DNA of 64,000 nt from Eisenibacter elegans DSM 3317. GTDB lineage: Bacteria > Bacteroidota > Bacteroidia > Cytophagales > Microscillaceae. Each line of letters starts with the position of its first letter. Position 1 is the first letter of the stretch. The stretch is from assembly GCF_000430505.1 (NCBI RefSeq), contig NZ_AUMD01000021.1, positions 64,001 through 128,000 of the forward strand. The letters are read 5' to 3'. Positions 11,318-46,518 of this stretch are shown here, piece by piece. Position numbers and translations under genes: made by a program. Under the pieces are notes generated by a model that ran no database searches, was not told where the DNA came from, and saw nothing but the letters and a program-made list of their open reading frames with translations.

Positions 11318-12004
11318 ATGCAGATGCCCATGGAGGAAAACTCTTGGTTGTATATGGAGCTGAACAAGGTGTCGCCACACTATCTCGACATCTTGTGGGC
11401 AGATGGATGGCGGCATTTTGGCAGCTTTTTTTTCCGGGATAAGTTTGGGTTTCATCGCGGTCAGAAAGTCCCTATCTTGCCGCTGCGTATCAATCTCCAC
11501 AAGTTCCGTTTTTCTAAGAGCCAACAAAAGCTGCTCAAACGACAAGCCGCCAGCGAAGTACTGATACGGACAGCACATATTGATGACGCTAAATACGAAA
11601 TGTTTTTCAAACACATTCATCGGTTTGAAGACAATGTCCCCGATTCTATCCACGATTTCTTGGGCCAAGACCCCTCACAAATCCCAGCCCCGATGTTGGA
11701 GTGTTGTTTGTTGAGGGAAGGGCGGATGTATGCAGTCAGCTTTTTTGATAAGGGCAACAAGGCCAGCTCTAGTGTATACGCTATGTTTGACCCGGCCTAT
11801 GGCCAGCTCAGCCCCGGCTTACACACACTCTTGGCCGAGATAGAGTTTTCCCTTGCCCATCAAATGGATTATGTCTACCTAGGGTATGCGTACCGTGAGT
11901 CTTCACATTATGACTACAAAAAACGCTTCTATGGCCTAGAATTTTATGACTGGAATGGCAAATGGCACGATTATCCACGCCTTACTGGAGAAGATGAAGC
12001 ATAA
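11318..12004 (+). CDS. bpt: Arginyl-tRNA--protein transferase family (bacterial Bpt, Asp/Glu leucyltransferase-like).
   Basis: It is 228 aa with an N-terminal ATE_N-like segment (WRHFG, FFRD) and a C-terminal YLGY...YK..F motif. Confidence 0.55.
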   Translation: MQMPMEENSWLYMELNKVSPHYLDILWADGWRHFGSFFFRDKFGFHRGQKVPILPLRINLHKFRFSKSQQKLLKRQAASEVLIRTAHIDDAKYEMFFKHIHRFEDNVPDSIHDFLGQDPSQIPAPMLECCLLREGRMYAVSFFDKGNKASSSVYAMFDPAYGQLSPGLHTLLAEIEFSLAHQMDYVYLGYAYRESSHYDYKKRFYGLEFYDWNGKWHDYPRLTGEDEA

Positions 12005-12008
12005 TAGG

Positions 12009-12106
12009 CCCAATCAAAACTGGTTTGGGAAATGTATTTGAAAATCCTTGAGACCCAAGAAAATTAACCCTTACAAACCCTCAAATCAAGTGAATCTTGG
12101 TATAAA
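12009..12106 (+). repeat. Family-A intergenic repeat, full copy.
   Basis: The sequence is cccaatcaaaactggtttgggaaatgtatttgaaaatccttgagacccaagaaaatt...caaatcaagtgaatcttggtataaaa. It begins 4 bp after the bpt stop. Confidence 0.7.
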
Positions 12107-12189
12107 ATCTAGGCAAAAGCTTGGATAGTTCATTAGAACTCTGTAATATTGCAATCGCTTTTGGAAACACCTGATTTTCGAAAGCCTCC

Positions 12190-12266
12190 GGACCCATAGC
12201 TCAGTCGGTTAGAGCATCTGACTCATAATCAGAGGGTCGCTGGTTCGAGCCCAGCTGGGTCCACCA
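12190..12266 (+). tRNA. tRNA with a CAT anticodon, either Met elongator-type or Ile2 (lysidine).
   Basis: A cloverleaf can be drawn on ggacccatagctcagtcggttagagcatctgactCATaatcagagggtcgctggttcgagcccagctgggtccacca. The G1-C72 pair argues against an initiator tRNA. The anticodon stem-loop resembles tRNA-Ile(CAU). Confidence 0.85.
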
Positions 12267-12293
12267 AGCTGTTAGCCAAACAGACTAATACAA

Positions 12294-12380
12294 ATGCCTC
12301 AAACAATACTACATACTTCAGGAAGTTGGTGGCGCGGTCAAGACCTGACTGCTGCCGAAAGACCTGCGTATGTACGGTGA
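12294..12380 (+). CDS. trpL: Putative trp leader peptide, 28 aa, with tandem Trp codons.
   Basis: The ORF ATG...TGA encodes MPQTILHTSGSWWRGQDLTAAERPAYVR, with TGG TGG at 12327-12332. A hairpin and an intrinsic terminator follow immediately, just upstream of trpE. Confidence 0.45.
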   Translation: MPQTILHTSGSWWRGQDLTAAERPAYVR

Positions 12381-12431
12381 GGAAAGCAGCACACCGACAG
12401 GTGTGTTTGTGTACTCCCAAAAACTTACAAA

Positions 12432-12460
12432 GCTCATTGCCTCGGCAGTGAGCTTTTTTT
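12432..12460 (+). terminator. Intrinsic terminator (attenuator) in the trpE leader.
   Basis: The 10-bp stem is gctcattgcc / ggcagtgagc (one G-U pair) with a 2-nt loop, followed by T7. It lies 64 nt upstream of the trpE ATG. Confidence 0.65.
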
Positions 12461-12523
12461 GTTGTCCAAACTTGATTACAGCTTCCCCAAAACACTTCTT
12501 ATCACCTATTTCTACCCAACACA

Positions 12524-13945
12524 ATGCTCCCACGCTACCAACTCCAAACCCAACACAAACGCTTGCTGGCTGACACACTGACGCCGGTGAGTATCTATCT
12601 CAAGGTGCGCGACAAGTTTCCCAATGCCATCTTGCTCGAAAGCTCGGACTACCACGGAGCCGAAAACACCTTTTCCTATATTTGCTTCGCACCAATGGCA
12701 GGCTTTAGTCTCAGCCAAGGAAAGGTTACGTATAGTTACGCCAATGGCCAAAATATCCAGCGTCAGCTAACACAACCCCAAGAGGCTATCGGGGCTTTGC
12801 AAACTTTTTTGGACAGCTTTGAGGCCGAAAAGCTGCCCTTCCATTTCATCACCCAGGGGGTGTTTGGCTATACGACATACGATGCTGTCCAGTATTTTGA
12901 AGAAGTTTCGATTCAGCGCCCAAGCAATGCCGACACTCACATTCCGGAGATGCGTTATCACCTCTACGGCTATGTAATTGCCATCAACCACTTCAAAAAC
13001 GAGCTATATCTCTTTGAGCATAGCTGCCCGGAGCTGCCCGGGGTTACCAATGGGTTAGAGGTCATCGAGGCGCTCCTACACAACAAAAATGTACCTGCCT
13101 ACAGCTTCAGCTGTGTTGGCGAAGAACAGGCCAATATGGACGATGCCCACTTTCTGAAGATGATTGCTCAGGGGCAACAACACTGTAAGCGGGGCGATGT
13201 GTTTCAGATAGTGCTCTCTAGGCGCTTTTCGCAAGCTTTCAAAGGAGACGAGTTTAATGTGTACCGAGCGCTGCGCTCCATCAACCCCTCGCCCTACTTG
13301 TTTTATTTTGACTATGGTAGCTTCAAGATTTTTGGCTCTTCGCCCGAAGCGCAGCTGGTGGTCAAAGGGCAAAAGGCCGAGATACACCCCATCGCGGGGA
13401 CGTTCAAACGTACCGGCAACGACGAGTCCGACGCAGAGCTAGCCCGCCTACTCGCCGCCGATGAAAAAGAAAACGCTGAGCACGTGATGCTCGTAGACTT
13501 AGCCCGCAACGACCTCAGCCGCAATGGCAGTCAGGTACAGGTCGAGACCTTCAAAGAAATCCAGTATTACTCACACCTCATCCACTTGGTGTCGAAGGTA
13601 ACGGCACATATCCCACCACAAACAGCGGCCTTACAGTTATTTGCCGATACTTTTCCCGCCGGCACGCTCTCCGGCGCTCCCAAACACCGAGCCCTGACCC
13701 TGATAAACCGCTACGAGCCTTCGAACCGAGGGTATTATGGCGGCGCTATTGGCTTTATGAGCTTCGAGGGAGAGCTCAACCACGCTATTATGATTCGTTC
13801 ATTCTTGAGCCAAGGCAACCGGCTGCATTATCAGGCCGGCGCGGGGGTTGTTTCTAAGTCTGTTCCTGAGAATGAGCTAGAAGAAGTGCATAACAAGCTT
13901 CGCGCCCTGCGTACTGCCCTTCAAGAAGCGCAAAATATCCGCTAA
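12524..13945 (+). CDS. trpE: Anthranilate synthase component I.
   Basis: It has the chorismate-binding enzyme fold (LVDLARNDLSR, GAIGF), is 473 aa, and is followed by a glutamine amidotransferase gene. The Trp-codon leader upstream supports TrpE over PabB. Confidence 0.8.
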   Translation: MLPRYQLQTQHKRLLADTLTPVSIYLKVRDKFPNAILLESSDYHGAENTFSYICFAPMAGFSLSQGKVTYSYANGQNIQRQLTQPQEAIGALQTFLDSFEAEKLPFHFITQGVFGYTTYDAVQYFEEVSIQRPSNADTHIPEMRYHLYGYVIAINHFKNELYLFEHSCPELPGVTNGLEVIEALLHNKNVPAYSFSCVGEEQANMDDAHFLKMIAQGQQHCKRGDVFQIVLSRRFSQAFKGDEFNVYRALRSINPSPYLFYFDYGSFKIFGSSPEAQLVVKGQKAEIHPIAGTFKRTGNDESDAELARLLAADEKENAEHVMLVDLARNDLSRNGSQVQVETFKEIQYYSHLIHLVSKVTAHIPPQTAALQLFADTFPAGTLSGAPKHRALTLINRYEPSNRGYYGGAIGFMSFEGELNHAIMIRSFLSQGNRLHYQAGAGVVSKSVPENELEEVHNKLRALRTALQEAQNIR

Positions 13946-13963: not shown

Positions 13964-14530
13964 ATGAAAATTTTAGTACTCGACAACTACGACTCTTTTG
14001 TGTACAATCTCGTACATCTTTTGCGCGAACTAGGGCATAGCCCTGAGGTGTTCCGCAACAACAAACTGCCCTTGGAGGCAGTGGCAGCTTATGATAAAAT
14101 CCTGCTTTCGCCGGGGCCGGGCATCCCCTCCGAAGCAGGGTTGATGCCGCAAATCATCGAAGCGTATGCTGCTCAGAAAAGCATCTTGGGCGTATGCCTA
14201 GGCCATCAGGCCATCGGAGAGGCGTTTGGTGCCCAACTTCACAATTTGCCCGAAGTCTTGCATGGCATCAGTTCTACGATGCACATCACAGATACTTCAG
14301 AGCCGCTTTTTGCCGGCTTGCCTGAGCAACTCTCCATCGGCCACTATCATTCTTGGGTTGTAGAAGCAGGAAGTCTACCCGAAAGCCTGCGCATCACCGC
14401 AACGGATGAGCGCGGCCACGTAATGGCCTTGGCTCATACCCGATATGATGTGCGTGGCGTGCAATTTCACCCTGAGTCGGTGATGACCGCCCACGGACGA
14501 GAAATGCTGGCCAATTGGTTGGGAATCTAA
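13964..14530 (+). CDS. trpG: Anthranilate synthase component II (glutamine amidotransferase).
   Basis: It has the class I GATase motifs GVCLGHQAIG and GVQFHPES and is 188 aa. Confidence 0.8.
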   Translation: MKILVLDNYDSFVYNLVHLLRELGHSPEVFRNNKLPLEAVAAYDKILLSPGPGIPSEAGLMPQIIEAYAAQKSILGVCLGHQAIGEAFGAQLHNLPEVLHGISSTMHITDTSEPLFAGLPEQLSIGHYHSWVVEAGSLPESLRITATDERGHVMALAHTRYDVRGVQFHPESVMTAHGREMLANWLGI

Positions 14531-39575: not shown

Positions 39576-40256
39576 TTGCCAATGAAGTTTGCCCTGAAAG
39601 TTTGTGGGATGCGTTCTCCCGAAAACATCACCAACGTGATAAGCGCTGCCGCGCCACAGTACTTAGGCCTGATTTTTTACCCCAAATCGCCTCGGTTTGT
39701 CCCCCTCTCAGAGGCGGCGGCGCTTTCTGCCCTTGATTTTGGTGGGGTAAAGAAGGTCGGGGTTTTTGTCAATGCGGCAGAGGCCACCATCATCGAGCAC
39801 CAAGCTGCTTTTGGGCTGGAGCTTGTTCAGCTTCACGGCCAAGAGTCTTCCGATTTTTGTGCTCGCTTGCGGGCTTTATTGCCCCAATCTTGTAATATTT
39901 TGAAGGCTTGGGGGCCGACCCCTGATACTGATTGGCAGGCCTTGGCCGCCTATGAGCCATACATAGTTGCTTTTTTGTTTGACACGCCCTCGGCTCAACA
40001 CGGTGGCACAGGAAGGCGGTTTGATTGGTCGATATTGCAAGACTACCCTCTCAAAACACCTTTCTGGTTGAGTGGTGGGTTAGATTTGGACAATATCGCG
40101 GAGGCCTTGTTATTGGCCCAACAACAACGCTGGCCGCTTCAGGGGCTAGATGTCAACAGCCGCTTTGAGTTGGCTCCTGCACTCAAAAACACCGAGTTGT
40201 TGGCACAATTGCGCCAACAACTTGATACCTTTCATACTACCGAAGCGCAAAACTGA
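39576..40256 (+). CDS. trpF: Phosphoribosylanthranilate isomerase.
   Basis: It has KVCGM, GLIFYPKSPR and VQLHG, is 226 aa, and has a TIM-barrel PRAI pattern. Confidence 0.75.
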   Translation: MPMKFALKVCGMRSPENITNVISAAAPQYLGLIFYPKSPRFVPLSEAAALSALDFGGVKKVGVFVNAAEATIIEHQAAFGLELVQLHGQESSDFCARLRALLPQSCNILKAWGPTPDTDWQALAAYEPYIVAFLFDTPSAQHGGTGRRFDWSILQDYPLKTPFWLSGGLDLDNIAEALLLAQQQRWPLQGLDVNSRFELAPALKNTELLAQLRQQLDTFHTTEAQN

Positions 40257-45717: not shown

Positions 45718-46419
45718 TCAATAATCGATACCTACCTGTTCTAGGCTTTGCCAGTTCCCGCGCCAAGTAGGAATTCGCAAGAGATGGTGAAGTTGTTGCA
45801 CAAATGTTGTTCGAGGAATATGTATAGCGCCTAGGCTTTCGAGATGGGTAGTATGTACCTGACAGTCGATGAGTTGGAAGTCGAGTTGGGCGAGTTTTTG
45901 GGTCAGTGTCAAGAATCCTGCTTTAGAGGCATTGCTGACCTTGCTGAACATCGATTCGCCAAAAAAGACCCTTCCCATACTGACTCCATACAGCCCCCCG
46001 ACGAGTTGCTCATCTTGCCATACTTCTACGGAGTGTGCGTAGCCTTGGTGGTGTAGGTCTAGGTAGGCTTGTAGCATTTCGTCGGTAATCCAAGTACCAT
46101 ATTGGCCGGAGCGGGGGATGTGGCGGCAAGCACCTATGACTTGCTCGAAGGCTTGGTCGAAGCTGACACGGAAGCGCCCTTGGCGCAAAATTGTGCGCAT
46201 ACTTTTAGAAACCTTCAGGTTCTTTGGATAGAGGACAAAGCGCGGGTTGGGCGACCACCAGATGATGGGGTCGCCTTGCGAATACCACGGGAAAATACCC
46301 GAGCGGTAGGCCAACAAAAGGCGCTCTTGGGAGAGGTCGCCACCAAGGGCTAAAATGCCGTCTTCGTCGGCTAGCTCTACGGGGGGGAAGTACAGGTTTT
46401 GGTCTAGGAAATAATACAT
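45718..46419 (-). CDS. aat: Leucyl/phenylalanyl-tRNA--protein transferase.
   Basis: It has the GIFPW, EVW..E.LVGGLYG and FFGESMF motifs. The ORF extends to 46458. Confidence 0.8.
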   Translation of the reverse strand: MYYFLDQNLYFPPVELADEDGILALGGDLSQERLLLAYRSGIFPWYSQGDPIIWWSPNPRFVLYPKNLKVSKSMRTILRQGRFRVSFDQAFEQVIGACRHIPRSGQYGTWITDEMLQAYLDLHHQGYAHSVEVWQDEQLVGGLYGVSMGRVFFGESMFSKVSNASKAGFLTLTQKLAQLDFQLIDCQVHTTHLESLGAIHIPRTTFVQQLHHLLRIPTWRGNWQSLEQVGIDY

Positions 46420-46518
46420 AGTAATCGTTTGGTGTAACAGAGCCAATAACCCTACCACGGAACTATTATGGCAAGCCTATGGTCGAGATTGAGGCTTATA
46501 TTGGCAAAAATCCCTACT

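Follow-up and report, generated by a model that had tools for sequence, protein, structure and literature searches.

The window, a stretch of 64,000 nucleotides (nt) of Eisenibacter elegans DSM 3317 contig NZ_AUMD01000021.1, carries an element between a tRNA gene with a CAU anticodon and the anthranilate synthase genes trpE and trpG. We hold it to be very likely that this element is a ribosome-mediated, Trp-sensing transcription attenuator of trpE-trpG and a divergent relative of the RF01692 leader. Its parts are a 28-codon leader open reading frame (ORF), named trpL, with tandem Trp codons, three RNA segments that can pair in alternative ways, a cap hairpin, and an intrinsic terminator (Table 1). 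These elements exist and are conserved, their helices covary, and the switch behaves in silico as modelled. Ribosome-mediated trp attenuation had been proposed here in an initial annotation of the window; the CAU tRNA, the Trp-Trp ORF, the 6-bp hairpin, the terminator, and trpE are all present at, or no more than 3 nt from, the positions then given, and the proposal now has the support of a conserved leader, a covarying antiterminator, and the in silico switch.

Conservation of the leader and covariation of the antiterminator

The comparison used a genome set of 80 loci with a TrpE-related trpE (labelled L001-L080) and, independent of it, a metagenome set of 72 loci with enough sequence upstream. 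Alignment A1 was made with MAFFT, blind to structure, from 78 sequences, i.e., 77 related loci plus the window, and a covariance model (R1) was built from the 77 related leaders. Judged from the window sequence alone, the evidence is modest, not strong: the 257-nt region is more stably folded than its shuffled versions (z = -3.8), Trp-Trp (WW) occurs in 8 of the 425 short ATG-started ORFs of the window, and a terminator-like hairpin follows only the trpL ORF. It is the comparative evidence that is decisive.

A Trp-rich leader has been kept upstream of trpE across the Cytophagales and Flavobacteriales. An ATG-started ORF of 15-33 codons that contains WW or WxW, in nearly every case as WWW, lies no more than 450 nt from trpE at 70 of the 80 genome loci. 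At five of the remaining ten, the leader is 500-700 nt further upstream, displaced by an inserted GIY-YIG gene; the others include one with a GTG start, one with a single Trp codon (L001), and one on a truncated contig, and two (L058 and L062) that lack a leader. The initial annotation had looked to relatives for a WW leader together with a terminator, and this expectation was borne out: once the GIY-YIG insertions, the GTG start, and the single-Trp case are resolved, both are present at 77 of the 80 genome loci, and the metagenome set has the leader at 66 of its 72 loci, 59 of these with a detectable terminator. The UGG codons of the window align in A1 with UGG codons of the 77 relatives. Most relatives have three Trp codons and the window two, AGT replacing the first of the three TGG. 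The closest leader, that of the Microscillaceae-type loci L002/L004 (MNQVSLHTQCWWWRKRDLSSANGFTMGV), is equal in length to trpL and aligns with it gap-free, 11/28 residues and 48/87 nt being identical.

The best complement of the sequence's own terminator apex lies 24-29 nt past the first Trp codon in 75 of the 78 sequences (at +24 in the window); for 51 of 59 metagenome loci, its position is +24 to +28. Segment 2 and the terminator apex read, respectively, GCUGCCGA and UCGGCAGU in the window, CUGCGAAUGG and CUGUUCGCAG in L002, GCUGAACGG and UCGUUCGGC in L007, CGCUGAACAGC and GCUGUUUAGCG in L033, GCCGGAG and CUUCGGU in L052, GUCGUGA and UCACGAC in most Flavobacteriaceae, and GUCGUAAG and CUUACGAC in L146. 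In a permutation test over 26 distinct apex classes, cognate duplexes averaged -11.1 kcal/mol versus -8.0 kcal/mol for non-cognate ones, a difference reached by none of 20,000 permutations; the window pair, a perfect match to its own sequence-divergent apex, ranks third of the 26 classes. The core antiterminator helix in A1 (columns 55-61 x 168-174) is 86% paired, as against 10-58% in slid controls, and six of its seven pairs change on both sides, giving 23 cells versus 5.8 +/- 2.1 in shuffles, with 0/500 shuffles matching. The window has standard pairs at all seven of these columns. An antiterminator that excludes the terminator, with pairings overlapping the Trp codons, had been named in the initial annotation as a structure to look for; such a pairing does exist for the window, and its helix shows covariation among the relatives. 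Two simpler or different antiterminators were abandoned. An "apex-only" version was superseded since, in the relatives as in the window, the helix extends over the 5' arm of the terminator, and a pairing of 12399-12413 with 12426-12438 was dropped because it has no support in relatives and the former stretch is part of the constant cap hairpin.

The homologous terminator helix is 94% paired in relatives, and 9 of its 12 pairs covary. The terminator had been annotated at 12432-12460 with a 10-bp stem and a T7 tract; this is the same element in trimmed form, the actual stem having 12 bp. A 6-bp hairpin at 12390-12405 had likewise been annotated correctly as to its presence. It is not a switching element: it is the tip of the larger cap hairpin, which is formed in both modelled conformations, contains the leader stop codon (12378-12380), and bridges the two antiterminator strands. 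The cap hairpin lies mostly in A1 columns that are gapped in the other 77 sequences, and the first Trp codon and the terminator are 102 nt apart in the window versus 55-76 nt in most relatives. On this alignment, the cap hairpin is inside a lineage-specific insertion of ~35-40 nt that widens the spacing between the Trp codons and the terminator. A sub-threshold Rfam match to the suhB/mmgR small RNA (sRNA) at 12399-12470 (23.7 bits versus a threshold of 41 bits) can be traced to a CUCCC motif together with the terminator; most likely it is a chance match.

Some leaders depart from the common arrangement. The nearest Microscillaceae metagenome-assembled genome (L001:2851-2980) has a single-Trp leader, MTNQQLHTNHCWRIFTQNAKRLPV, with the terminator and the complementary segment retained, and may have a weakened or differently tuned sensor. 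Two tandem WWW leader ORFs are present in L006 (-304..-247 and -156..-93 relative to trpE) and in L038 (-390..-339 and -165..-108), and these may be duplicated attenuators in series. The GIY-YIG nuclease gene (PF01541, 98 amino acids) lies between the terminator and trpE in several Flavobacteriaceae, namely L045, L046 (2639-2935), L047, L063, and L077; it has the look of a small mobile or selfish element that entered the regulatory spacer.

Table 1. Positions in the window of the attenuator, its flanking genes, and related features.
Feature	Positions	Strand	Basis
Candidate Bacteroidota promoter: TTG 12121-12123, 20-nt spacer, -7-like box TAATATTG 12144-12151	12121-12151	+	Motif scan
tRNA gene, anticodon CAT, encoded CCA end	12190-12266	+	ARAGORN; Rfam tRNA, 74.5 bits
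Small hairpin without a T-run, directly 3' of the tRNA	12267-12286	+	Folds
trpL leader ORF, 28 codons, MPQTILHTSGSWWRGQDLTAAERPAYVR	12294-12380	+	ORF translation
Segment 1: 5' strand of the anti-antiterminator, includes the Trp codons	12310-12340	+	Minimum free energy (MFE) helices
Tandem Trp codons UGG UGG, predicted sensing site	12327-12332	+	Sequence, alignment A1
Segment 2: core GCUGCCGA at 12351-12358; pairs with segment 1 or 3	12346-12374	+	Modelled folds
Cap hairpin: contains CACACC gaca GGTGTG (12390-12405) and the leader stop codon	12376-12418	+	Folds, alignment A1
Segment 3: terminator 5' arm, loop, and first nucleotides of the 3' arm; antiterminator 3' strand	12423-12449	+	Modelled folds
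Intrinsic terminator: 12-bp stem 12429-12440 x 12445-12456, loop CUCG, T7 12454-12460	12429-12460	+	-18.4 kcal/mol
trpE, anthranilate synthase component I	12524-13945	+	Pfam Chorismate_bind
trpG, glutamine amidotransferase component, last gene of a two-gene operon	13964-14530	+	Pfam GATase, 173 bits
trpF (PRAI), unlinked, 25 kb away	39576-40253		Pfam

The switch in silico and its proposed mechanism

The switch was folded in 72 sequences, using transcripts cut at the terminator apex to represent a polymerase that has yet to make the 3' arm. The ribosome was modelled as a footprint either over the Trp codons or at the leader stop codon, and the upstream part was dinucleotide-shuffled as the control for sequestration of segment 2. 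When no ribosome was present, segment 2 was sequestered upstream in 55 of the 72 sequences versus 5.8 expected from the shuffled controls. The free window RNA forms the helices 12310-12316 x 12368-12374, 12319-12322 x 12363-12366, and 12326-12333 x 12351-12358, plus the cap hairpin and the terminator; the last of the three helices pairs the Trp codons themselves (positions +3 to +9, counted from the first Trp codon) with the core of segment 2. Placing the ribosome on the Trp codons gave the antiterminator in 66 of the 72 sequences, and in the window the number of antiterminator pairs rose from 0 to 7. The window then forms a rod (12351-12358 x 12442-12449, 12359-12365 x 12431-12438, and 12368-12373 x 12423-12428), with the cap hairpin at its end. 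The antiterminator was seen only in transcripts cut at the terminator apex. Full-length single-sequence folding, both with and without ribosome masks, always let the terminator win; it is uninformative on a kinetic switch and was set aside.

We infer leader translation, ribosome stalling, and Trp-dependent readthrough, which would proceed as follows. A ribosome would translate the 28-codon leader as RNA polymerase makes it. If charged tRNA-Trp is ample, the ribosome would clear UGG-UGG, segments 1 and 2 would pair, and the terminator (12429-12456 plus T7) would form, ending transcription before trpE. If tRNA-Trp is scarce, a ribosome stalled on the Trp codons would cover segment 1, and segments 2 and 3 pair in the model; the antiterminator, capped by the 12376-12418 hairpin, would form before the 3' arm of the terminator is made, and readthrough into trpEG would follow. 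The switch would be kinetic. Less certain is a further step, in which the unit would lack its own promoter and rely for transcription on that of the tRNA-Ile2(CAU) gene, 27 nt upstream.

Several results weigh against an attenuator of this kind, or against its kinship with RF01692. When the ribosome footprint is put at the leader stop codon, 6 bp of the antiterminator still form as a remnant, and termination in that state is thus not guaranteed by the model alone. At equilibrium with a stalled ribosome, the terminator fold is favored at -44.0 versus -35.0 kcal/mol; as it is ~9 kcal/mol more stable, control must be kinetic. Attenuation of the trp operon of E. coli is likewise kinetically controlled. 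A fixed-column anti-antiterminator helix is 55.6% paired in A1, which is not above slid controls, and there is no single conserved register; the register differs between clades, and that of the window differs from the flavobacterial one. The shuffle-based statistics overstate independence because the sequences are related by descent. The window gave no match to RF01692 at E <= 10 in either a 3-kb or a 214-nt search, and R1 recovered only its terminator part, matching at model positions 78-122 with 13.3 bits (E = 0.7 for a search of the whole window), a result unchanged with filters off. Since no model detects the window element, its homology rests on position, gene context, and the 28-codon gap-free match to L002/L004. 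Finally, no experimental study of any Bacteroidota trp leader was found in the searchable literature.

Transcription of the leader and the neighboring tRNA gene

The tRNA gene is the only one that ARAGORN reported in the whole window. Its best E. coli matches are annotated as tRNA-Ile (82-83% over the full length), and by this likeness it is most likely a lysidine-modified tRNA-Ile2 and not a tRNA-Met. The trpL start lies 27 nt downstream, and the tRNA-leader junction recurs unchanged in the independent Logan assembly made from run SRR896301 (5098/5098 nt identical). Codon 5 of trpL is AUA (12306-12308), the codon that the CAU of tRNA-Ile2 reads after lysidine modification; AUA is rare, accounting for 3 of the 65 Ile codons in trpE, trpG, and the citrate synthase gene of this genome, and its presence in trpL beside a tRNA-Ile2 gene is probably a coincidence.

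No tRNA gene was found near any of 93 related trpE loci within the flanks examined, and the adjacency in the window is thus unique among them; the tRNA is therefore a late arrival at a locus whose leader and terminator are ancestral. A perfect copy of TAnnTTTG, the -7 box of Bacteroidota promoters, lies no more than 150 nt upstream of the leader ATG at 66 of 76 related loci, being 5-19 nt away at 60, with distances of 5-9 nt at 22 loci and 15-19 nt at 33. Because this -7 box is so close to the ATG, the leader-peptide mRNAs of many relatives are probably near-leaderless, with a very short or absent 5' untranslated region, as judged from box position and not from mapped 5' ends. The window has a tRNA gene where this promoter is expected. 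TAnnTTTG, even with one mismatch, is absent from 12152-12401, so that none lies between the tRNA and the ATG, and no sigma-70-type match occurs in the same interval, alternative sigma factors not being included in the scan. The near-consensus box closest to the leader ATG on its 5' side is TAATATTG, which has one mismatch to TAnnTTTG and ends 38 nt upstream of the tRNA; the only other such box in 11990-12293 is at 12033-12040. The candidate promoter to which TAATATTG belongs is a weak assignment, drawn from consensus only.

A terminator scan between the tRNA and the leader detected none, and as the hairpin directly 3' of the tRNA has no T-run, tRNA transcription should run on into the leader. 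The most economical reading would be that tRNA, trpL, and trpEG are co-transcribed from the tRNA promoter. The initial annotation had taken the 27-nt spacing to imply either co-transcription or a very compact promoter, and of the two the evidence appears to favor the former. A point against it is that the case is made solely from the absence of a recognizable promoter motif, and the more specific proposal, that the tRNA-Ile2(CAU) gene replaced the promoter of the attenuator, with tRNA, trpL, and trpEG forming one transcription unit, is given an even chance. If it is true, the attenuator terminator would serve the tRNA as well, ending its transcript under ample Trp, the 5' end of the leader mRNA would be produced by tRNA 3' processing, and trpEG output would be coupled to a tRNA promoter that may be growth-rate controlled.

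The alternative that survives best retains the attenuator and gives it a promoter of its own, unrecognized, either within the 27-nt spacer or inside the tRNA gene toward its 3' end, with the tRNA and trpL-trpEG as separate units. The -7 boxes found 5-9 nt from the leader ATG in relatives mean that compact promoters are normal here, and the promoter motifs of this lineage are known from consensus only, with alternative sigma factors lying outside the scan. We nevertheless regard such a promoter as unlikely, given the lack of either motif in 12152-12401 and the fact that its upstream elements would fall inside the tRNA, a sequence under strong constraint.

A second alternative does away with the attenuator: the hairpin and T7 would be the terminator of the tRNA, the WW ORF would be fortuitous or decayed, and trpE would be constitutive or subject to some other signal downstream. 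The hairpin is indeed the first terminator downstream of the tRNA, WW arises by chance at the frequency given above for short ORFs of the window, trpL has only two Trp codons, and the element escapes both RF01692 and R1. Set against this are the ancestry of leader and terminator at loci that have no tRNA, the agreement of trpL with the L002/L004 leader in length and at 11 of 28 residues, and a segment 2 that keeps the conserved offset and is fully complementary to its own divergent apex. In addition, the stretch from the terminator to trpE offers a single promoter-like candidate, TTTTTTTG, which lies in the T-run. We consider this alternative very improbable. Control of termination without translation is the least credible of all: other routes of attenuation exist for bacterial trp genes, the TRAP protein of Bacillus and the T-box elements of Firmicutes being known mechanisms, but a TRAP-like Trp-activated RNA-binding protein, a T-box-like tRNA interaction, or Rho would have to account for conserved features that only a translating ribosome can read, i.e., in-frame UGG codons in a short ORF that has both start and stop codons, and no T-box or other riboswitch family in Rfam matched at E <= 10.

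Genomic context, family membership, and known systems

The assignment of a trpE-trpG pair with trpF unlinked, made in the initial annotation, was confirmed by Pfam. No other trp genes were present among the 20 window ORFs scanned with Pfam, and trpG is followed by a convergent terminator and then by minus-strand genes. TrpE is 56-63% identical to the products of 160 Bacteroidota TrpE loci, the best matches (63%) being in Microscillaceae, other Cytophagales, and Flavobacteriaceae; nothing closer than 63% was found in genome or metagenome contig scans, and an exact-protein search returned only its own contig. In most relatives, ORFs of the size of trpD, trpC, and trpF follow (L002, L005, L006, L007, L020, L054, and L070 were compared). 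Immediately upstream of the tRNA is an ATE-like arginyl transferase gene (11318-12004), and a second aminoacyl-tRNA-protein transferase gene of the window, that of a Leu/Phe-tRNA protein transferase, lies at 45718-46458.

Rfam RF01692, "Bacteroid-trp" (Bacteroidete tryptophan peptide leader RNA), was presumed on its description to be a peptide leader for the control of trpE and trpB in the Bacteroidetes, where no trp attenuation leader had been reported before; the motif was called "a loosely conserved hairpin," and no consensus diagram was drawn (Weinberg et al. 2010, PMC2864571). The transcriptome of Flavobacterium psychrophilum later gave "strong clues" for leader-peptide attenuation before amino-acid operons (PMC9723704). 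RF01692 remains a computational prediction in the searchable literature. The layout described for this Bacteroidota genome is real but not new to the phylum, having been predicted already as RF01692.

The flavobacterial A1 members L020, L034, L048, and L010 score 60-80 bits against RF01692 (gathering threshold 49), and the model misses 11 of 15 related loci at its gathering score, including most Cytophagales copies. By the operational criterion of model score, the window element is not a member of RF01692; very probably it works like a Bacteroidota trp leader and is homologous to that leader. It shares with RF01692 the phylum, the position upstream of trpE (63 nt separate its end from the gene), and a short ORF with at least two UGG codons in a hairpin, the MFE hairpin 12310-12374 enclosing the Trp codons; the RF01692 model runs as far as the 5' arm of a terminator downstream, and the window has such a terminator. 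It differs in having two and not three Trp codons, a leader of 28 codons versus ~18-20, an inserted cap hairpin, a tRNA gene in place of the promoter, and control of trpEG only, as against an apparent trpEGDC(F), judged from ORF sizes. The covarying antiterminator found here is missing from both the RF01692 structure and the 2010 text.

What is new is modest: a covariation-supported three-helix model for a Bacteroidota family, a branch missed by the Rfam model, and a tRNA gene where a promoter was expected. With a family-wide antiterminator, the Bacteroidota trp leaders would for the first time have a structural model that goes further than the "loose hairpin" of Rfam, and the specific compensatory pairs of the three-helix model make it testable in a family otherwise known solely as a motif in Rfam. 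Classical Trp attenuation logic has been kept in Cytophagales and Flavobacteriales, in a phylum with little Shine-Dalgarno use, and near-leaderless leader mRNAs would bear on how ribosomes are loaded there. Because RF01692 misses most Cytophagales copies, the window included, annotation pipelines under-call the family. A tRNA-attenuator fusion would be unusual wiring. The current understanding of attenuation is unaltered by these results.

Among characterized systems, the window element has the features of a classical attenuator, namely tandem Trp codons, an intrinsic terminator, and a mutually exclusive antiterminator; in silico only, segment 1 also overlaps the Trp codons and sequesters segment 2 unless the ribosome stalls. 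Against RF00513, the proteobacterial Trp_leader model, the window scored 12.7 bits (E = 5.5), below the 41-bit threshold. Five of nine Cytophagales-type loci (L005, L015, L026, L033, and L054) gave sub-threshold RF00513 matches of 28-32 bits, higher than most of these leaders reach against RF01692; this likeness is probably one of convergent architecture. Like E. coli trpL in the Yanofsky model, the window element has two tandem Trp codons, a four-segment logic (1:2, 2:3, and 3:4), and a terminator more stable than the antiterminator, hence kinetic control. Unlike it, the window has no Shine-Dalgarno-type context, its Trp codons pair directly with the core of segment 2, an extra constant hairpin caps the antiterminator, and there is no detectable homology between the two. 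In the E. coli thrU-tyrU-glyT-thrT-tufB operon, tRNAs lie upstream of an mRNA on one primary transcript and are separated from it by processing; the window would differ, if co-transcribed, in that the downstream unit is an attenuator, and the tRNA transcript would end at the terminator of that attenuator. The trpL of Sinorhizobium meliloti belongs to another phylum and has no sequence relationship to the window element, but there, too, the attenuator governs only the anthranilate synthase gene(s), other trp genes being elsewhere, and the attenuator RNA, once released, acts in trans as an sRNA (PMC6614838).

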